This document shows, piece by piece, positions 2,155-12,045 of a stretch of 64,000 nt of DNA. A program made the translations under genes and the position numbers. The DNA lies in the NCBI GenBank assembly GCA_041664165.1, contig JBAYLH010000006.1, forward strand, positions 143 to 64,142, written 5' to 3'. The notes beneath the pieces were generated by a model. That model was not told the origin of the DNA and ran no database searches. It was given only the letters and a program-made list of their open reading frames with translations. The DNA is from Candidatus Buchananbacteria bacterium. Lineage in GTDB: Bacteria; Patescibacteriota; Patescibacteriia; Buchananbacterales; UBA6539. Positions within the stretch are counted from its first letter, which is position 1, and each line of letters begins with the position of its first letter.

Positions 2155-2200
2155 CTTGACCTAGTATTTTGTATGATATAGTATGATACTATAGTAAGTA
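2155..2200 (+). promoter_or_regulatory. Putative sigma70 promoter (cttgac-N17-tagtat) overlapping the palindrome tatagtaTGAtactata (2177-2193), a candidate operator
   Basis: The -35/-10 hexamers are spaced 17 nt apart. A direct repeat gtatgata x2 and 7-bp inverted arms sit about 50 nt upstream of a gene whose N-terminus is a ribbon-helix-helix. Confidence 0.4.
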
Positions 2201-2249
2201 GCTTGCAGCTGGCAGGAAATAGGAACTTTACAAGCTATAAACCAACTCT

Positions 2250-3083
2250 ATGGACAGATCAAGACTGACAATTACGCTAAAAAAAGAGATTTTAAAGCAA
2301 CTTGATGAATATATTGATGGCGCCCGGATTCGAAACCGGTCTCACGCCATTGAGTATGTTTTAGTTAAGCAGTTTGCGCCGAAAATAAAAAAGGCCGTGA
2401 TTTTAGCCGGCGGCATCGGTTTGAAGATGCGGCCGTTTACTTATGAAATGCCGAAAGCCATGATTTTAGTTGCCGGTCGGCCGGTTTTGGAATATATCAT
2501 TGAAAATTTGCGCCGGTATGATGTGCGCGATTTGATTATTTCCATCGGTCATCAGGGAGCGAAAATTAAACAGCATTTCGGCGACGGTTCAAAATTCGGC
2601 GTCAAAATTACTTATGTCGAGCAAGGCAAATCCCAAGTCGGCACGGTGGCACCGCTTTTGCAGATTAAGAAAACGATCGGCGATAATCCTTTTATTGTTT
2701 ATTACGGTGATGTTTTGGCTAATATTGATTTTGACGACATGATTGATTTTCATTTCGGCAGTAGCGGGTTAGTGACGATGGCCTTAACTTCGGTCAATAA
2801 ATCATCGGATTGGGGAGTGGTGCGGGTTCAAGGCAGCCGGGTTTATTCATTTTTAGAAAAGCCCGATGCCAGAAAGGATTTATCCAATGTGATTAATGCC
2901 GGGATTTATATTTTTGAACCAAAGATTTTTGATTACCTTAATCCCGACTGCAAGAGATTGGAAAAAGATGTTTTTCCTAAGCTAGTTGAAGAACGGAAAA
3001 TTTTTGGCTATCTTTTTGCCGGCCAGTGGTTTGACGTGGGCAACCCCGAAATTTATAAATTAGCAGTCAAAGAATGGCGCTAA
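2250..3083 (+). CDS. Ribbon-helix-helix (CopG/NikR-like) domain fused to a sugar-phosphate nucleotidyltransferase (RmlA/ManC-like)
   Basis: N-terminal TITLKKEILKQLDEYIDGARIRNRSHAIEYVL has the RHH pattern. It is followed by AVILAGGIGLKMRPFT (the G-rich NTP-transferase loop) and a typical nucleotidyltransferase body. Confidence 0.7.
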   Translation: MDRSRLTITLKKEILKQLDEYIDGARIRNRSHAIEYVLVKQFAPKIKKAVILAGGIGLKMRPFTYEMPKAMILVAGRPVLEYIIENLRRYDVRDLIISIGHQGAKIKQHFGDGSKFGVKITYVEQGKSQVGTVAPLLQIKKTIGDNPFIVYYGDVLANIDFDDMIDFHFGSSGLVTMALTSVNKSSDWGVVRVQGSRVYSFLEKPDARKDLSNVINAGIYIFEPKIFDYLNPDCKRLEKDVFPKLVEERKIFGYLFAGQWFDVGNPEIYKLAVKEWR

Positions 3084-3154: not shown

Positions 3155-4162
3155 ATGCCAATAAAAATTGCCATTAATGGTTTTGGCCGCATGGGTCGGC
3201 TCATTTTTCGAAAGATGTTTGACGACCCGGCCGTTCAAATTGTCGCAATTAATAGTCCTTCCAGTGTTGCCTTTTATGCCCATTTGCTTAAATATGATTC
3301 CTGCTACGGGATTTGGGATAAGGACGTCAGCGCTGAAGAGACAAAATTATTAGTTGATGGAAAATCAATTCCTTTGTATTGCCACCTGACGCCGCTGAAT
3401 TGCCCCTGGCGAGAGCTGGAAGTTGACATTGTCATTGAATCAACCGGCGTTTTTCGAAGCCGAGCCGATTCGGAATTGCACCTTAAAGCCGGCGCCAAGC
3501 GCATTATCATTACAGCGCCGGCCAAAGACGAGGATATCACACTGGTGCCGGGCGTCAATTTGGACGCTTTTGATCCGGCCAGTCATGTTATAATTTCTTC
3601 CGCTTCCTGCACTTCAAATTGCCTGGCGCCGATAATCAAAACCATCCAGCCGGCCTTGAAAATCAAGCACGGCTATATGGTTACGGTGCACGCCTATACT
3701 AATGATCAGCATCTAGTCGATGCGCCGCACAAAAAAGAAGATTTTCGGCGGGCGCGGGCGGCGACCGAATCCATTATTCCAACCGACACCGGCGCGACCA
3801 AAACGATCGGCAAGCTGATTCCGGAATTAGCCGGCCGGCTTTCTGGCATCGCCATGCGCGTACCGGTAGTTTTGCCTTCGGTGATCAATTTGGCTTTGGA
3901 AGTAGAAAAATCGACCACCGCCGAAGCGGTCAATAAAATCTTAAAAGACGCGGCCATGGGCGAACTTAAAGGCATTATGGATTTTTCCACGCTGCCGCTA
4001 GTATCGGTTGACTATCGCGGCAATCCCTGCGCTTCCATCATTGACGGCCTGCTGACGGAAGTGGTGGACGAAACCATGGTCAATATTGTTTCCTGGTATG
4101 ACAATGAATGGGGTTACATCAATCAGCTATCGCGGGTGATTAAGCATGTTGGTAAAAATTAA
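3155..4162 (+). CDS. gap: Glyceraldehyde-3-phosphate dehydrogenase, type I
   Basis: INGFGRMGR Rossmann motif, the SCTSNCLAP catalytic cysteine motif, and WYDNEWGY at the C-terminus. Confidence 0.9.
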   Translation: MPIKIAINGFGRMGRLIFRKMFDDPAVQIVAINSPSSVAFYAHLLKYDSCYGIWDKDVSAEETKLLVDGKSIPLYCHLTPLNCPWRELEVDIVIESTGVFRSRADSELHLKAGAKRIIITAPAKDEDITLVPGVNLDAFDPASHVIISSASCTSNCLAPIIKTIQPALKIKHGYMVTVHAYTNDQHLVDAPHKKEDFRRARAATESIIPTDTGATKTIGKLIPELAGRLSGIAMRVPVVLPSVINLALEVEKSTTAEAVNKILKDAAMGELKGIMDFSTLPLVSVDYRGNPCASIIDGLLTEVVDETMVNIVSWYDNEWGYINQLSRVIKHVGKN

Positions 4163-5739: not shown

Positions 5740-5978
5740 TAGTTGACAAAATATTACTAAAAAAATAGCTTTAATTAGCTATTTTTTTATTTTATCCACA
5801 ATTTTGTCGGAAAAAAATTGACAAGTTTTAAAATCCATTATAAGATAGCTATTATTAATATCCCGGTAGTGATCCCACACTTAATAGAGGAGATTACTGC
5901 CGGATAAAGGTTAAAACATAGTTGATAAAATATTCGTCTTTCACTTTTAATAAAACAAGTGGGGGACTACTACCGGGT

Positions 5979-6719
5979 ATGATTGAAAAAATCCTCCAAA
6001 ATTTAGGCCTAACTGACAAGGAAATCAAGGTTTATTTGTCATCTCTGAAACTGGGGCCAACACCGGTACGAAAAATTGCCCTGGAAGCCGGGATTAACCG
6101 CGGCACGACTTATGATATTTTAAAGGCTTTAATCGAGCTGGGCTTGGTCAGTTATTACCATCAGGATAAAAAGCAATATTTTATTGCCGAAGATCCGGCT
6201 AAGCTAAAGGATGTTTTAGAAAAAAAACAACAAGACTTAGAAAAGATTAAGGGCGATGTTGATCAGATTATTCCTCAACTAAAATCAATTTATGACAATG
6301 CGGAAAATAAACCGGTGGTTAAATTTTATGAAGGGGACGCCGGCGTTAAAATAATTTTACAGGACGTCATTGCCTCCTGCCTTGCGGCGGAAAAGAAAGA
6401 ATATTATGTTTATTCGTCTTCAACCATTAAAAAATATATTTATGAATTGTTTCCAGATTTTACCGATCAGCGGATTAAGGCCAACGTCAATGTCAAAGTA
6501 ATTTCGGTCGGACCGGGCGGTGAAATCCGGGGTTTAGACGAAAGAAAATGGCTGACGACCAAAGAAAGCGCCCCGACTTATACTTTGATTTATGCCGGCA
6601 AAGTGGCGATGATTTCCGTTGACAGTAATGACCGGCCGATTGGCATCATTATTGAAGATAACAATCTTTATAAAACGCAATGGATACTCTTTAATTTTGC
6701 TTGGCAGAAACTAGAATAA
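5979..6719 (+). CDS. TrmB-family transcriptional regulator (sugar-responsive type)
   Basis: MIEKILQNLGLTDKEIKVYLSSLKLGPTPVRKIALEAGINRGTTYDILKAL is the canonical TrmB N-terminal wHTH. The ORF-track start at 5922 is a TTG; the ATG at 5979 is preferred. Confidence 0.7.
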   Translation: MIEKILQNLGLTDKEIKVYLSSLKLGPTPVRKIALEAGINRGTTYDILKALIELGLVSYYHQDKKQYFIAEDPAKLKDVLEKKQQDLEKIKGDVDQIIPQLKSIYDNAENKPVVKFYEGDAGVKIILQDVIASCLAAEKKEYYVYSSSTIKKYIYELFPDFTDQRIKANVNVKVISVGPGGEIRGLDERKWLTTKESAPTYTLIYAGKVAMISVDSNDRPIGIIIEDNNLYKTQWILFNFAWQKLE

Positions 6720-6721
6720 AT

Positions 6722-6762
6722 TATAATTAAATTCTAAATCCGAAATTCTAAATCCGAAATAA
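6722..6762. repeat. AT-rich tandem repeat (aattctaaatccgaa x2) upstream of glmS
   Basis: Direct 15-nt repeat. Related ctaaatccgaaat/ctaaattctaa strings occur near 14805 and 27738. Confidence 0.5.
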
Positions 6763-6866
6763 ATTCAAAATCACAATTTCCAAAACTTAAAACTTTTTTG
6801 AAAATTTGAATTTAGTTATTAAATATTGTTTAGAATTTCGAAATTAGAGCTTAGAAATTAAAATAT

Positions 6867-8702
6867 ATGTGTGGGATAGTCGGTTACATCGGTTTAAAAC
6901 AAGCAAGCCCGATTTTAATTGACGGCTTGAAGCGGCTTGAATATCGCGGCTATGATTCGGCCGGCTTAGCGATTTGGGACGGTCAAAAAATCGGGCAAGT
7001 GAAATTAAAAGGCAAGATTTCGCAGTTAGCGGATTTAATCAAAGACCGGCAGCTTTCCGGCAGTATTGGCATTGCTCATACCCGCTGGGCGACTCACGGC
7101 ATTCCGTCGGAAGTTAACGCTCATCCGCATTTTGACTGCACTGGAAAAATTGCCATTGTTCATAATGGGATTATTGAAAATTTTTTGGCTTTGAGAAAAG
7201 TTTTGCAATCCGAAGGCCATAAATTTGTTTCGCAGACTGATTCGGAAGTCTTGGCTCATTTGATTGAGAAATATAAACCGGGCAAAACTTTGGAGCAAGC
7301 CGTGATTTTAGCTTTGAAACAGGTGGAAGGAACTTATGGTCTGGTGGTTTTTTGCGCCGATGAGCCGGATAAAATCGTGGCGGCGAAAAAAGGCAGTCCG
7401 CTGGTCGTTGGCGTTGGCCAGGGCGAATATCTAGTCGCTTCCGACGCTTCGGCGATAATTTCTTACACCAAACACGTGATTTACCTTGACGACAATGAAG
7501 TAATTACGATTACCGCTGGCAGCCATCAAGTTAATAACTTAATTAATAGTAATGGCATTGAAAAAAAGGTTGAAGAAATCAGTTGGAATCTAGAACAAAT
7601 TGAAAAAGGCGGTTTTGATACTTTCATGCTCAAAGAAATTTTTGAGCAGCCGGACAGTATTACTAATGCCTTGCGCGGCCGGGTTTTATTAGATGACGGA
7701 CAAGTTAAGATTAGGGGATTAGATGAAATTGAAAAAAGGCTGACATCAGTTTCGCGGGTCATTATTGTCGCTTGCGGCACTTCCTGGCACGCCGGCTTAG
7801 TCGGGGAATTTTTAATCGAAGACTTGGCTAAAATTCCGGTTGAAGTCGAATATGCCTCGGAATTTCGTTACCGCCATCCGGTCATTGGGCCGGACTGTCT
7901 CGTCATTGTTATTTCCCAATCGGGTGAAACCGCGGACACTTTGGCCGCTTTGGAATTAGCCAAGGAAAAGGGCGCAATTACTTTTGGTATCTGCAACGTC
8001 GTCGGTTCAACAATTGCCAGAAAAGTCGATGCGGGCTGTTTTTTGCATGCCGGGCCGGAAATCGGCGTGGCTTCAACCAAAGCTTTTACTTCACAGCTAA
8101 CCATTTTGAACTTACTGGCAGTTTATCTGGGTCGGCTCAGAAAAAATTTGTCAGCCGATAAAGCCAAAGAAATTTTAAAGGAACTTTTAGCCGTGCCGGC
8201 TCTGGTTAAAGAGTTGTTAGAGAAAAACGAGGAAATTAAAAGTTTAGCGAGTGAATTCAAACAAGCCACTAATTTTTTGTATTTAGGCCGCGGCTTAAAT
8301 TTCCCGGTGGCTTTGGAAGGCGCTTTGAAGCTGAAAGAAATTTCTTATATTCATGCCGAAGGCTATCCGGCCGCGGAAATGAAACACGGCCCGATTGCCT
8401 TGATTGATCAGCAGTTACCCGTATTATTTTTGGCTAATAAAGATTACACTTACGATAAAATTGTTTCTAATATTTTAGAAGTTAAGGCCCGGGGCGGCAG
8501 AGTAATTGCCATTGCTTCGGTTGGGGATGATGAGATTGCTAAAATCGTCGAACATGTGATCTACGTGCCAAAGGCTTTAGACTTTTTAACCCCGATTTTA
8601 AACACGATTCCGCTTCAGCTTTTGGCTTATCATATTGCGACTTTGAAAGGCTGCGACGTTGATAAGCCGAGAAATTTGGCTAAGAGTGTAACGGTTGAGT
8701 AA
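6867..8702 (+). CDS. glmS: Glutamine--fructose-6-phosphate aminotransferase
   Basis: MCGIVGY N-terminal nucleophile, two SIS domains, 611 aa. Confidence 0.95.
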   Translation: MCGIVGYIGLKQASPILIDGLKRLEYRGYDSAGLAIWDGQKIGQVKLKGKISQLADLIKDRQLSGSIGIAHTRWATHGIPSEVNAHPHFDCTGKIAIVHNGIIENFLALRKVLQSEGHKFVSQTDSEVLAHLIEKYKPGKTLEQAVILALKQVEGTYGLVVFCADEPDKIVAAKKGSPLVVGVGQGEYLVASDASAIISYTKHVIYLDDNEVITITAGSHQVNNLINSNGIEKKVEEISWNLEQIEKGGFDTFMLKEIFEQPDSITNALRGRVLLDDGQVKIRGLDEIEKRLTSVSRVIIVACGTSWHAGLVGEFLIEDLAKIPVEVEYASEFRYRHPVIGPDCLVIVISQSGETADTLAALELAKEKGAITFGICNVVGSTIARKVDAGCFLHAGPEIGVASTKAFTSQLTILNLLAVYLGRLRKNLSADKAKEILKELLAVPALVKELLEKNEEIKSLASEFKQATNFLYLGRGLNFPVALEGALKLKEISYIHAEGYPAAEMKHGPIALIDQQLPVLFLANKDYTYDKIVSNILEVKARGGRVIAIASVGDDEIAKIVEHVIYVPKALDFLTPILNTIPLQLLAYHIATLKGCDVDKPRNLAKSVTVE

Positions 8703-8750
8703 TTATTTTTTGTGTTATTCTGAAGGAGCTCCGATTTTATGTTGGGACGA

Positions 8751-8795
8751 CTGAAGAATCCCTGCCTGCCGGCAGGCAGGTCAGAGATTCTTCAG
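8751..8795. repeat. Palindromic hairpin element ctgaagaatc-cctgcctgcc|ggcaggcagg-gattcttcag (REP-like, possible glmS terminator)
   Basis: A perfect 20-bp inner palindrome with 10-bp outer arms. Related cctRcc..ggYagg palindromes occur at 13215-13236 and 48075-48096. Confidence 0.6.
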
Positions 8796-8826
8796 CCTTC
8801 GGCCTCAGAATGACAAATGAAAACAT

Positions 8827-10044
8827 GTGAAAATAATTTTATACGAAGACAATCAAGCCAGTAACTTATACCCGATTACCTTAACCCGGCCGAGTTTTGA
8901 TATTTTTTGCGGGGCGGCTAATTTAGTCCAAGTCATTAAAACAATTTTTTCCCAAGCCGGTGTTGGCTATCTGGTTCGCGATCATTTGAAAGAAATTGTT
9001 GCAAAAAAGTATCCGGCCAAAGAGGCGGATACTGGTTACGTTTTATATCTTAACGGCAGTTTAATCCCGAGTTTCACCTTAGCCAAAAAGTTGGCCGAGA
9101 CGATCAGATTTGACCAAGAATTAATTTTGAAAAATGGGGAAAAAATTATCGGGGCAATTGTCGCCGCTAATCAGCCAATTACTAATTATAACGAATTGGA
9201 AGCGTACTCAAAAAAGCTGGATTTAAAAATGATTCAAGTCCAATGGCCAAGTTTTAATTATTCCTGGGAAGTCATCGTTTATAATCAGCAAATTATTAAT
9301 GATAATTTGGATTATTTGAAAATTAATTTTAAAGAAATTAAGCCAAACGTCTTCGTCGGTGGCGGGGTCAAACTGGCCGATAACATTTCGTTTAACACCG
9401 ACAATGGCATAATTATCATCGATGAAAAGACCAAAATTTCGCCGTTTGTTTATTTAGCCGGTCCGCTTTATATCGGCTCTAACTGTCTAATTAAGGAATT
9501 CGCCGCGGTTAAAGACAAATGTTGCATTGGCCCGGTTTGCAAAATTGGCGGGGAAATAGAAGCGACGATTATTCAAGGCTATTCCAATAAGCAGCATTAT
9601 GGATTTTTAGGCCATAGTTATTTGGGCGAGTGGGTTAATATTGCCGCCGGGACTTCCAATTCCGACTTGAAAAATACCTATAGCTTGATTAAAATCGGGG
9701 GTGTTGAAACCGGCCAGCAGTTTTTGGGCACGGTCATCGGCGATTACAGCAAAACCGCCATTAATACCTCGATTTTTACCGGCCGGATCATTGGCGCCTG
9801 TAGCTTTGTTTATGGCACTATCACCCGCGATATTATTTCTTTTACCAACTATGCCGCTAATTTAGGCTGCGTTATTGAATTGGACTTCGACGTTGCCATT
9901 AAATCCCAAAAGGCAATGTTTGGCCGGCGCCAGATGGAACAAACGGCAGTAGAAATAAATTTATTAAAAAATATTTATGAGCTGACCGCCGCTGACCGGC
10001 TTGCTGCCAACGTTAAACCCGGCCGGTTGGAATTTAAAATTTAA
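8827..10044 (+). CDS. GlmU-like protein with left-handed beta-helix (hexapeptide-repeat acyltransferase) C-terminus and a degenerate nucleotidyltransferase-like N-terminus
   Basis: Hexapeptide repeats IGSNCLIKEFAAVKDKCCIGPVCKIGGEIEATII. The N-terminus is nucleotidyltransferase-like but lacks the G-rich loop. Confidence 0.55.
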   Translation: MKIILYEDNQASNLYPITLTRPSFDIFCGAANLVQVIKTIFSQAGVGYLVRDHLKEIVAKKYPAKEADTGYVLYLNGSLIPSFTLAKKLAETIRFDQELILKNGEKIIGAIVAANQPITNYNELEAYSKKLDLKMIQVQWPSFNYSWEVIVYNQQIINDNLDYLKINFKEIKPNVFVGGGVKLADNISFNTDNGIIIIDEKTKISPFVYLAGPLYIGSNCLIKEFAAVKDKCCIGPVCKIGGEIEATIIQGYSNKQHYGFLGHSYLGEWVNIAAGTSNSDLKNTYSLIKIGGVETGQQFLGTVIGDYSKTAINTSIFTGRIIGACSFVYGTITRDIISFTNYAANLGCVIELDFDVAIKSQKAMFGRRQMEQTAVEINLLKNIYELTAADRLAANVKPGRLEFKI

Positions 10045-10047
10045 ATT

Positions 10048-10791
10048 ATGGGTAAAATCCAAATTATTATTTTGGCGGCCGGCCACGGCAAAAGAATGAA
10101 TAACGCGGAATTGCCGAAGGTTTTAGTTCCGTTCAAGGGCAAGCCTTTGATTAGCCGTTTGCTGCAAGCAATTAAAGCCTCCGGCGTTTGCGCCAAACCG
10201 GCAATTGTTGTCGGACAAAAAGCCGACATGATTAAAGCGGCTTTGGGTTCGGACTATACTTATATTTTTCAGGCCGAACAACTGGGTACCGGCCATGCGG
10301 TAATGTGCAGTAAAGATGAGCTAGCCGGCAAAGCGGAAAATATTATGGTTTTATACGGTGATCATCCGCTGGTTTCCGCCGAAACAATAAAAAAAATTGC
10401 CGCTGCTCATTTGGAAACGGGAGCAATATTGACGATGGCCACGGTAACAATTCCGGATTTTTCCGACTGGCGAGCTAATTTTTATGATTTCGGCCGGATT
10501 ATCCGCACCGACTCAGGCCGAGTTTGCGCGATTGTTGAAAAAAAAGATGCCGCTGAAAGCCAGAAAGAAATTAAAGAAGTTAATCCGAGCTATCTTTGTT
10601 TTCAAGCCGAATGGCTCTGGGAGAATTTAGCTAAGCTGAAAAATGACAATGCCCAAAAAGAATATTATTTAACCGATTTAATCGGCAGCGCTTGTCGGCA
10701 GAGCCAAGAAATTACGACCGTTGAAATCAGGCCGGAAGAAGCATTGGGCGTTAATACGGCCGAACAGCTTGAATTGATAAATAAAATTTAA
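10048..10791 (+). CDS. Sugar nucleotidyltransferase (GlmU N-terminal-like, UDP-GlcNAc pyrophosphorylase-type)
   Basis: ILAAGHGKRM G-rich loop and the GT-A nucleotidyltransferase fold pattern. Its start is 4 nt after the stop of the acyltransferase-like gene. Confidence 0.65.
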   Translation: MGKIQIIILAAGHGKRMNNAELPKVLVPFKGKPLISRLLQAIKASGVCAKPAIVVGQKADMIKAALGSDYTYIFQAEQLGTGHAVMCSKDELAGKAENIMVLYGDHPLVSAETIKKIAAAHLETGAILTMATVTIPDFSDWRANFYDFGRIIRTDSGRVCAIVEKKDAAESQKEIKEVNPSYLCFQAEWLWENLAKLKNDNAQKEYYLTDLIGSACRQSQEITTVEIRPEEALGVNTAEQLELINKI

Positions 10792-12045
10792 ATGAGGTTA
10801 ATCGCCGATTTGCACATCCATTCCAAGTATTCCCGGGCTTGCTCGAAGGATTTAGATTTGCCTCATATTAATCAATGGGCAAAAATTAAGGGGATTCAAA
10901 TTGTCGGGACTGGCGATTTTACTCATCCGGCCTGGCTAAAGCATCTTAAGGAAAACTTGGTTGAAAACCGACCTGGTTTTTTTAAATTTAAAGGCGATAC
11001 CGACTCCGTTTTATTCATGCTGACGACCGAGCTTAGCTGTATTTATTCTCAGGGTGATAAGTGTCGGCGGATTCATCTTTGTATTTTTGTTCCGGATTTT
11101 AAAACGATTGATAAAATTAATGAAGCCTTAACTAAGCGGGGAGTTAATTTAAAATCCGATGGCCGGCCGATTATGGGTCTTCACGCCGATGAATTGACCA
11201 AGATTATTTTAGACGCCAATCCTCAGTCATTAGTCATTCCGGCTCATGCCTGGACACCCTGGTTTTCGGTTTTTGGTTCTCATTCCGGCTTTGACACCTT
11301 GCAGGCTTGTTTCGGCGATCAAACTAAGTATATTTATTCAATTGAAACCGGTTTGTCATCTGACCCGCCGATGAACTGGCGAGTTTCGGCGTTGGATAAA
11401 ATTACTTTAATTTCCAATTCCGATGCTCATTCACCGGCGAATTTAGGCCGGGAAGCCAATGTTTTTGAAATCCCGGAAAATGAATTAAGCTATCAAGAAA
11501 TTTACCGCATCCTTAAAGAAAAAGACCAAAAACGATTTTTGTATACGATTGAATTTTTTCCCGAAGAAGGCAAATACCATTGGGATGGCCACCGCGATTG
11601 CCAAATCCAGTTTAAGCCCGGCCAAACTAAAAAAAATAAAGGCATTTGTCCGATTTGCAAAAAGCCGCTGACGATTGGCGTGGTTAATCGCGTCGAGCAG
11701 CTGGCCGACCGACCGGAAAATTTTAAACCTGACACGATCGGCTATAAAAGTTTAGTGCCGCTGCCGGAAATTATTGCCGATTTTTTGGGGCAGGGGAAAC
11801 TGACTAAAAAAGTTACGGCCATTTATCAGGATTTAATTGCCAAAGGGGGCAATGAATTTCGGATTTTACTTGATTTATCGATTCCGGAATTAGAAAAAAT
11901 TGCGCCGTTGGAAATTGCCTTAGGGATTAAAAATGTCCGGGAAGGCAAAATTGAAATTTCCGCCGGCTATGACGGAGTTTACGGCGTGGTAAAAGTTTTT
12001 AAAGGCGGAGAAATAAAAAAACTAGCCCAAAAAAGTTTATTTTAA
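10792..12045 (+). CDS. PHP-domain protein with C-terminal Cys-x2-Cys element (TIGR00375/EndoQ-like)
   Basis: N-terminal ADLHIHSKYSRA PHP metal-binding motif, HAWTPW, SDAHS, and ICPICKKPLT. Confidence 0.55.
   Translation: MRLIADLHIHSKYSRACSKDLDLPHINQWAKIKGIQIVGTGDFTHPAWLKHLKENLVENRPGFFKFKGDTDSVLFMLTTELSCIYSQGDKCRRIHLCIFVPDFKTIDKINEALTKRGVNLKSDGRPIMGLHADELTKIILDANPQSLVIPAHAWTPWFSVFGSHSGFDTLQACFGDQTKYIYSIETGLSSDPPMNWRVSALDKITLISNSDAHSPANLGREANVFEIPENELSYQEIYRILKEKDQKRFLYTIEFFPEEGKYHWDGHRDCQIQFKPGQTKKNKGICPICKKPLTIGVVNRVEQLADRPENFKPDTIGYKSLVPLPEIIADFLGQGKLTKKVTAIYQDLIAKGGNEFRILLDLSIPELEKIAPLEIALGIKNVREGKIEISAGYDGVYGVVKVFKGGEIKKLAQKSLF

Follow-up and report, generated by a model that had tools for sequence, protein, structure and literature searches.

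A ribbon-helix-helix domain fused to a sugar nucleotidyltransferase in Patescibacteria: a candidate autorepressing enzyme with conserved tandem boxes at its own promoter

The stretch of DNA analyzed here (64,000 nucleotides; referred to below as the window) comes from a Candidatus Buchananbacteria genome and thus from the Patescibacteria, or candidate phyla radiation (CPR). An open reading frame (ORF) on its forward strand, which begins with ATG and extends from 2250 to 3083 including the stop codon, encodes a 277-aa protein in which a predicted DNA-binding domain of the ribbon-helix-helix (RHH) type (residues 1 to 45; 2250 to 2384) is fused to a sugar-1-phosphate nucleotidyltransferase domain (residues 48 to 269; 2391 to 3056). 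The protein is 100% identical to P0001, from Candidatus Buchananbacteria. A promoter scan places a sigma-70-type promoter on the same strand upstream of the gene, with the −35 hexamer TTGACC at 2156 to 2161 and, 17 nt further on, the −10 hexamer TAGTAT at 2179 to 2184. The −10 hexamer is overlapped both by a direct repeat of the 8-bp box GTATGATA and by a 17-bp palindrome. A 155-nt intergenic gap separates the fusion gene from a NagB-family gene (1333 to 2094) on one side, and a gene for glyceraldehyde-3-phosphate dehydrogenase (GAPDH; 3155 to 4162) comes after it on the other. Patescibacteria have small genomes with few recognized transcription factors, and almost no regulation has been characterized in them.

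The N-terminus of the protein, MDRSRLTITLKKEILKQLDEYIDGARIRNRSHAIEYVL, can be divided into a strand (RLTITL), a helix A (KKEILKQLDEYI), a turn (DGARIRNRS), and a helix B (HAIEYVL). Residues 5 to 35 align with the Pfam family RHH_1 at 19.8 to 20.0 bits (E = 7e-4) when the isolated domain is searched and at 15.4 bits when the full protein is searched. The same Pfam family is matched by 30 of 38 diverse N-termini from relatives of the protein (E ≤ 0.01; best E = 1.3e-7), and among the relatives P0177 exceeds its threshold with 25.5 bits and P0173 with 23.1 bits. A profile built from 28 N-termini retrieved from the PDB the NikR proteins of E. coli (E = 8.7e-5; residues 4 to 44) and P. horikoshii (E = 0.025) together with CopG (E = 0.007), and no further PDB match; alignment with the NikR N-terminus by hhalign gave a probability of 97%. 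AlphaFold2 models of the whole protein (predicted local distance difference test, pLDDT, 86) and of the domain alone (pLDDT 79) contain an extended segment at residues 1 to 11, followed by helices at residues 12 to 22 and 30 to 42. The strand is unpaired in these models because only a single chain was predicted. When the N-terminal model was compared with known structures by Foldseek, NikR came first (TM score 0.78; root mean square deviation 2.1 Å; 44 columns), with MazE, CdbA, SvtR, Reg576, and ParD, all of RHH type, among the top matches after it; the E-values are weak, as expected for a query of 46 residues. Thus, profiles and models agree that the N-terminal domain is, by prediction, an RHH domain most similar to that of NikR.

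Conservation within the family points in the same direction. Among 25 homologs of 56 to 100% identity, the most conserved segment of the entire protein is RLTITL...D..IDG..IRNRSHAIEY, with R5, T7, R28, N29, R30, S31, H32, A33, and E35 invariant. In RHH-DNA complexes, these positions map to the strand, which inserts into the major groove, and to the beginning of helix B, by which the phosphate backbone is clamped. A type II antitoxin of the CopG, ParD, or HicB-like kind, with only a faint match to HicB_lk_antitox (E = 0.024), was considered and rejected: the RHH domain is fused to an enzyme, the neighbors are a NagB-family gene and GAPDH, and there is no toxin partner.

The remainder of the protein matches the NTP_transferase family (PF00483) over residues 48 to 269 with an E-value of 3.6e-43 (148.3 bits against a cut-off of 21.2). 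The best Foldseek match of this domain is 8x7s (E = 5e-21; TM score 0.76), the UTP-glucose-1-phosphate uridylyltransferase tlr0611, and the nearest solved structures, at about 30% identity, include, in addition to 8x7s, the GDP-mannose pyrophosphorylases of plant, human, and Leishmania and MurU. G54, G55, K69, D154, E203-K204-P205, and D262 are invariant in the 25 homologs and R61 is at least 90% conserved in the close family; K69, D154, EKP, and D262 make up the motifs that bind Mg and phosphate, and D154, the EKP motif, and D262 align with the equivalent motifs of 8x7s and 7whr. In the phosphate-binding loop, GGIGLKMRPFTYEMPK (GGIGLKMRP), Leu58 and Lys59 align with the Thr and the canonical Arg of G-x-G-T-R. 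With this Lys as the one departure, the domain looks catalytically competent, judging from its residues, and the protein, like its subfamily, is likely to be an active enzyme. None of the NCBIfam equivalogs for RmlA, ManC, MurU, GlmU, and GalU reaches its threshold, all being far below (for example, Arch_glmU 155 against 292, the ManC Rv model 145 against 440, and MurU 115 against 250). The preliminary description of this DNA, made from the letters alone, had read the protein as a CopG/NikR-type RHH domain of about 45 residues followed by an NDP-sugar pyrophosphorylase of the RmlA/ManC type, and both halves of that reading, including the fold expected at the N-terminus, are borne out by the searches.

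The fusion is widespread. Relatives were collected by scanning one genome per GTDB species, which yielded 362 stretches, of which 80 loci were kept. At identities down to 56%, the window protein is covered over 93 to 100% of its length, N-terminus included, by more than 120 protein clusters, the RHH domain is in frame with the enzyme in all 80 loci, and the architecture recurs across hundreds of species. The loci are labeled Buchanan-, Falkow-, Uhr-, Kerfeld-, Nealson-, Doudna-, Gottesman-, Berkel-, and Moranbacteria, Microgenomates, and unclassified Patescibacteria; a few bins with other labels may reflect mis-binning. Full fusion genes were also seen in two bins labeled archaeal (L039 and L057; uncultured archaeon and Candidatus Altiarchaeales), of which L057 has an inverted TATGAT-N9-TTCATA upstream of the gene; these could be either mis-binned contigs or the result of transfer to DPANN-like archaea. 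In public annotation, these proteins appear as nucleotidyltransferases only, so that the regulatory half is invisible in the databases.

The promoter of the fusion gene was compared across the same loci. In the window, box 1 (2171 to 2178) and box 2 (2181 to 2188), both on the forward strand, form the double box GTATGATA-N2-GTATGATA with a period of 10 bp (2171 to 2188), and each box contains an internal dyad, TAT-G-ATA. The −10 hexamer covers the gap and extends into the beginning of box 2. The related loci were scanned for GTATGAT-N3-GTATGAT with at most 2 mismatches, on the gene strand in the 400 nt upstream of the fusion gene (30.7 kb in total) and on both strands in the remaining 1.18 Mb. 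A double box was found upstream in 49 of the 80 loci, compared with 15 matches in all of the remaining sequence, about 10 of which are intergenic and lie within about 1 kb of the fusion gene. The aligned 49 sites give the consensus G-T-A-T-G-A-T-R-n-a-G-T-A-T-G-A-T-A-A-T, in which positions 2 to 7 and 12 to 16 are conserved in 47 to 49 sites. The G that opens each box is conserved in 44 sites, and T17 in 36. Three boxes are present in L028, L035, and L074; in the window, the exact double box occurs once and has no second copy.

The boxes are always on or beside the core promoter, yet they occupy at least four registers relative to it. At 20 sites (the window and 19 related loci), the distance from the −35 hexamer to the boxes is 9 nt and the −10 TAGTAT spans the gap and box 2. 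At 8 sites, the distance is 5 to 7 nt and the second TATGAT serves as the −10, whereas at 5 sites with a distance of 15 to 16 nt it is the first TATGAT. At 3 further sites, with a distance of 29 to 31 nt, the boxes begin just past a separate TATAAT. Among the 31 loci lacking the strict double box upstream, some have degenerate or inverted versions and others have a double box only downstream of the gene; no recognizable double box was found in the Gottesmanbacteria/Microgenomates group. Inverted variants are intergenic in L054, L064, L203, and L040 and were retained as variants, whereas the inverted site at L072:2770 lies inside an ORF, is probably due to chance, and was dropped. An exact-motif scan of metagenome contigs could not define a regulon: 118 of 120 stretches were chance or satellite matches in unrelated DNA, and the CPR fusion gene was present only in L097 and L142.

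The palindrome fared differently. The sequence TATAGTAT-g-ATACTATA (2177 to 2193) is a perfect 8+1+8 palindrome, but nothing equivalent was found among perfect palindromes in the 160 nt upstream of 80 orthologs, and its outer arms are missing even in orthologs of 77 to 83% amino-acid identity. Palindromes of this class number 14 in the window, against about 6 expected, and the 17-bp palindrome taken alone is weak evidence. Because it is centered on G2185, which is also the center of box 2, it is best seen as a lineage-specific extension of the box 2 dyad. The preliminary description had proposed this palindrome as a candidate operator, subject to its conservation upstream of orthologs, and had remarked on the direct repeat over the −10 region. 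Of these two elements, the palindrome is real at the sequence level but lineage bound and was rejected as the operator, whereas the repeat is the element that is conserved, so that the idea of a cis-element on the gene's own core promoter holds with the double box in place of the palindrome.

The combination of an RHH domain, a metabolic enzyme, and a site on the gene's own promoter can be compared with several known systems. The closest in architecture and logic is PutA, a fusion of an N-terminal RHH domain with a metabolic enzyme in one chain, which represses its own regulon autogenously (PMC5293562). The enzyme domains of PutA are PRODH and P5CDH, whereas the window protein has only NTP_transferase-type Pfam domains after the RHH. 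PutA has about 1300 aa, binds GTTGCA sites, and is switched by flavin reduction with membrane association, in contrast to the 277 aa and the GTATGATA boxes seen here. NikR is the closest RHH protein by sequence and fold, with the R-x-T-x-T strand and the NRS turn in common, and likewise joins its RHH domain to a C-terminal ligand-binding domain that controls DNA binding. The half-site of its operator, GTATGA (PMC7055735), matches the core of the boxes in the window. The NikR half-sites are inverted and 16 bp apart, whereas the boxes here are direct with a 10-bp period. The C-terminal part of NikR is an ACT-like nickel domain (His/Cys site, tetramerization), in place of which PF00483 is found here at residues 48 to 269, the alignment with NikR ending at residue 44; the window protein is not a member of the NikR family.

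MetJ, Arc, and CopG are RHH repressors that regulate their own gene or operon and bind as dimers to adjacent short boxes over the promoter; they are small, stand alone with no enzyme attached, and have boxes of other sequences. In MetJ, the tandem 8-bp boxes are each palindromic and a small-molecule corepressor takes part, and CopG has an RLTITL strand identical to that of the window protein. BirA and NadR are enzymes that repress genes of their own pathway, with an intermediate or substrate controlling DNA binding, but they use winged-helix or helix-turn-helix domains, and catalytically they are a biotin ligase and an NMN adenylyltransferase/kinase, respectively. By domain content, the window protein is not PutA, BirA, or NadR. 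Finally, enzymes of the ManC, CugP, and MurU type share the PF00483 domain (about 30% identity; TM scores of about 0.7 to 8x7s, VTC1, GMPPB, and MurU), but their matches start at about residue 42 and never include residues 1 to 41 (from the alignments for 8x7s and 7whr, and from match coordinates for the rest). The window protein lacks the C-terminal beta-helix of the ManC and CugP relatives. No description of an RHH-nucleotidyltransferase fusion, or of RHH, CopG, or NikR regulators in Patescibacteria, was found in the literature searched, the coverage of which was incomplete.

A cis-element on the core promoter of its own gene is the layout expected of an autorepressing enzyme-regulator such as PutA, BirA, or NadR, and the interpretation that we consider probable is that the window protein is a trigger enzyme of this kind. 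The RHH domains of two chains would pair as a two-stranded ribbon, and two such dimers, probably joined by an oligomeric enzyme domain, would sit one helical turn apart on the tandem boxes; the dyad centers, spaced by 10 bp, face the same side of the helix, which suits two symmetric RHH dimers side by side. Since the boxes cover the spacer and the −10 hexamer of the TTGACC-N17-TAGTAT promoter, bound protein would exclude RNA polymerase, and the fusion gene would thereby repress itself. Occupancy of the enzyme domain by a nucleoside triphosphate (NTP), a sugar-1-phosphate, or an NDP-sugar would tune DNA binding, such that synthesis of the enzyme, and in other species that of adjacent sugar-metabolism genes, would follow the sugar-nucleotide pool. 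Here, we infer from the conserved boxes that the RHH domain binds DNA at them; repression as opposed to activation, the ligand control and its direction, the oligomeric state, catalysis, and the sugar specificity are likewise putative. Such a protein would constitute a concrete regulator-operator pair, testable and conserved over many lineages of Patescibacteria, and would add a new enzyme class, the NDP-sugar pyrophosphorylases, to the short list of enzymes with their own DNA-binding domain (PutA, BirA, and NadR).

Several observations weigh against this interpretation. The RHH_1 score of the window protein is just under the Pfam cut-off of 20.5 bits. The strict double box is missing upstream in 31 of the 80 related loci. 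TATGAT itself resembles a −10 hexamer, so its conservation could be due in part to promoter function. The match of the boxes to the NikR half-site may be a coincidence; CopG has the identical strand and its operator sequence differs from that of NikR, so this match should not be over-read. The Arg of the GxGTR motif is replaced by Lys in the window protein and by Ala or Asn in a few relatives. Finally, the near-invariance of the RHH residues in the distant relatives described below is biased, because these were found with an RHH query.

The alternative that survives best, although we regard it as unlikely, is that the boxes are not the site of the fusion protein at all but tandem −10-like elements or the site of another regulator, with the RHH domain binding elsewhere or weakly. 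TATGAT differs from TATAAT at only one of the 6 positions, a box provides the −10 with the best spacing in 14 loci, and a second conserved element, TTATCCACA, implies that other factors probably act at this promoter. The conservation extends beyond what a −10 hexamer requires, however, to the leading G, the purine at position 8, the strict 10-bp period, and the presence of up to three copies, and from lineage to lineage the register relative to the −35 hexamer shifts by 4 to 31 nt without disruption of the box pair. Another conserved promoter of the same genomes, that of a TrmB-like gene, has a plain TATAAT or TAAGAT without boxes. The sliding register, the multiple copies, and the absence of boxes from the TrmB-like promoter together argue for a repressor site as opposed to a fixed promoter feature. 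Furthermore, the double-box matches are almost confined to the fusion gene and its immediate neighbors, and autoregulation is typical of RHH proteins, CopG, Arc, MetJ, NikR, and PutA among them.

Slightly less likely again is that the protein is a transcription factor only, with the nucleotidyltransferase-like domain serving as a non-catalytic ligand sensor, as it apparently does in distant relatives. A phmmer search of 1.84 billion representatives with residues 1 to 48 as the query returned 136 matches (E ≤ 1e-3), of which 78, of 195 to 330 aa, were aligned to the window protein. Across these 78, the RHH residues hardly vary, whereas many of the proteins lack catalytic residues or whole motifs: K/R59 is kept in 16, K69 in 30, D154 in 56, K204 in 38, and D262 in 35, and about 20 representatives of 200 to 219 aa lack the region from the EKP motif to D262. 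Proteins of about 210 aa with an RHH domain and a degenerate nucleotidyltransferase-like domain include P0154, P0173, P0177, P0195, and about 20 further representatives. In addition, the canonical Arg is Lys in the window protein, and other nucleotidyltransferases are encoded nearby (8827 to 10044 and 10048 to 10791). The replacement of Arg by Lys is conservative, however (position 59 is mostly K in relatives, with R in P0105, A in P0106, and N in L062), the other catalytic positions are invariant or nearly so in the close family, and the domain can be aligned along its whole length with active enzymes (about 30% identity).

The degenerate relatives are informative in their own right. P0173 and P0177 (L202 and L203) are encoded directly upstream of a ManC-type nucleotidyltransferase gene, and the longer contig, L203, continues after it with genes for phosphoglucomutase/phosphomannomutase and ROK kinase. 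GTATGA-type boxes precede the genes of several relatives: GTATGAAtttGTATGAT in L204, TATGATGATGTCATA in L203, and TATGAA-N13-TTCATA in L201. A variant of the strand, FTITM, occurs in L054 and L064 together with an inverted TATGAT-N3-ATCATA, located upstream of a gene, of about 330 aa, that sits immediately before the fusion gene. The retention of the RHH domain while catalytic residues are lost, the place of two such members at the head of manC-type clusters, and the boxes before the relatives' genes suggest a family whose constant function is DNA binding, with the enzyme fold as its ligand-sensing module. Intact and degenerate enzyme domains behind the same RHH domain thus form a natural series for the change from an enzyme to a ligand-sensing regulator.

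It is highly improbable that the RHH domain merely oligomerizes the enzyme, in place of the C-terminal beta-helix of ManC/GlmU-type proteins, and does not bind DNA. The beta-helix of the nearest structural relatives (350 to 400 aa) is indeed missing here, and RHH domains are obligate dimers. Pure dimerization, however, would constrain the hydrophobic core and not polar surface residues, whereas the conserved residues are those that face DNA, namely R5, T7, and T9 in the strand and R28-N29-R30-S31 where helix B begins; the box pair at the promoter would also be left unexplained. An artifact, in which assembly or gene calling joined a small RHH gene to a separate enzyme gene, can be dismissed: although every sequence derives from a metagenome assembly, more than 120 clusters and 80 independent species loci, contributed by many studies, share the uninterrupted frame and the linker (...FAPKIKKAVILAGG...).

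Box pairs also occur at other genes of the related loci. A second box pair after the fusion gene precedes a HAD hydrolase gene in L026, L027, and L032, a PfkB sugar kinase gene in L033, a phosphofructokinase gene in L052, and a gene for a kinase-like protein of about 340 aa in L024 and L035; in L077, the boxes stand before a phosphoribosyltransferase gene, itself situated directly upstream of the fusion gene on the same strand. The most common downstream neighbor, found in 23 loci and absent from the window, encodes this same kinase-like protein (about 330 aa; for example, L012:4945-5937 and L001:4948-5979), with motifs such as IGIDPKPSNF and YVDLMPPR. Its match to DUF6206 is sub-threshold and its protein-kinase matches are insignificant; it may be a sugar kinase partner. 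Further neighbors are phosphofructokinase (PFK), GAPDH, phosphoglycerate kinase, a phosphoglucose isomerase-like SIS protein, ROK kinase, HAD hydrolases, NagB, and TrmB-family regulators. The conserved theme of the neighborhood is hexose-phosphate metabolism and sugar activation and not specifically amino sugars.

These observations allow a broader proposal, which we put forward only tentatively, that the RHH-nucleotidyltransferases are a large, enzyme-derived family of sugar-nucleotide-sensing transcription factors, confined to Patescibacteria as sampled. Intact members would make an NDP-sugar and repress themselves, whereas degenerate members would be pure sensors. Through TAT(G/C)ATA boxes, often beside a DnaA-box-like element, the family might control genes of sugar activation, salvage, and glycolysis (manC-PGM/PMM-ROK, PFK, PfkB, kinase-like, and HAD genes). 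If this is true, the family could rank among the main metabolic switches of genomes that have very few regulators.

The DnaA-box-like element mentioned above is the 9-mer TTATCCACA, which is present as an exact match on the forward strand at 2136 to 2144, 11 nt upstream of the −35 hexamer. For 27 of 54 double-box sites, this sequence or its complement (at most 1 mismatch) is found in the 70 nt upstream, against a background of 0.023 per 70 bp, and at those 27 sites it lies 5 to 27 nt upstream of the TTGAC −35 element. The only other exact copy in the window (5792 to 5800) is located before the promoter of the TrmB-like gene, an arrangement kept in seven related genomes. The element could reflect DnaA acting as a transcription factor or could be the site of another factor. 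Positions in related loci at which it was listed are L013:65, L035:4922, L001:6887, L004:5865, L006:7209, L007:4148, L010:4629, L012:7614, and L014:2349.

The leader and flanks of the fusion gene showed no RNA structure better than shuffled sequences and no Rfam match: the hairpin after the upstream gene has a folding energy of −7 kcal/mol (z-score −0.9), the 5′ leader has a z-score of +0.9, and the 3′ end is likewise no better than shuffles. In several Buchananbacteria-like loci, the leader between the box pair and the start codon is long and consists of short tandem repeats, such as AGGAAGT ×12 and TAGGTTGG ×4 (L014:1-90, L006:3915-3950, L012:3800-3860, L003, and L004); short units such as CAAATT or ACAAAT are visible in the L003 and L004 leaders. 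In other loci, hairpin-forming repeats (ATGACAAGTnnACTTGTCATCCTGAG...CGAAGGATC and TGTCATTGCGAGC...GCAATGACA) are inserted in the leader just past the boxes (L001:3898-3950, L005:3855-3880, L009:823-870, L042:1160-1230, and L061 and L072 at about 3900-3980). These inserts look like members of a dispersed palindromic repeat family.

In the window itself, GlmS and a protein with NTP_transf_4 and hexapeptide domains are encoded 3.8 to 5.7 kb downstream of the fusion gene. They belong to a run of sugar-related genes (5922 to 12045) that comprises a TrmB-family regulator (5922 to 6719), GlmS (6867 to 8702), the NTP_transf_4 and hexapeptide protein (8827 to 10044), a MobA-like nucleotidyltransferase (10048 to 10791), and a 417-aa protein with no Pfam match (10792 to 12045). 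The amino-sugar setting (nagB, glmS, and a GlmU-like gene) named in the preliminary description is therefore present in the window, but it is not conserved in other species. A GC-rich 20-bp palindrome lies just 3′ of glmS (8761 to 8780). At its other end, the window starts within a 23S rRNA gene, of which the matched part comprises only model positions 2656 to 2912 (844 to 1088), and a 5S rRNA gene (1190 to 1298) comes after it. An ORF for a LAGLIDADG endonuclease (176 to 706) lies inside the 23S rRNA gene, which implies an intron, and a perfect 14+1+14 palindrome (138 to 166) is located just upstream of this ORF.

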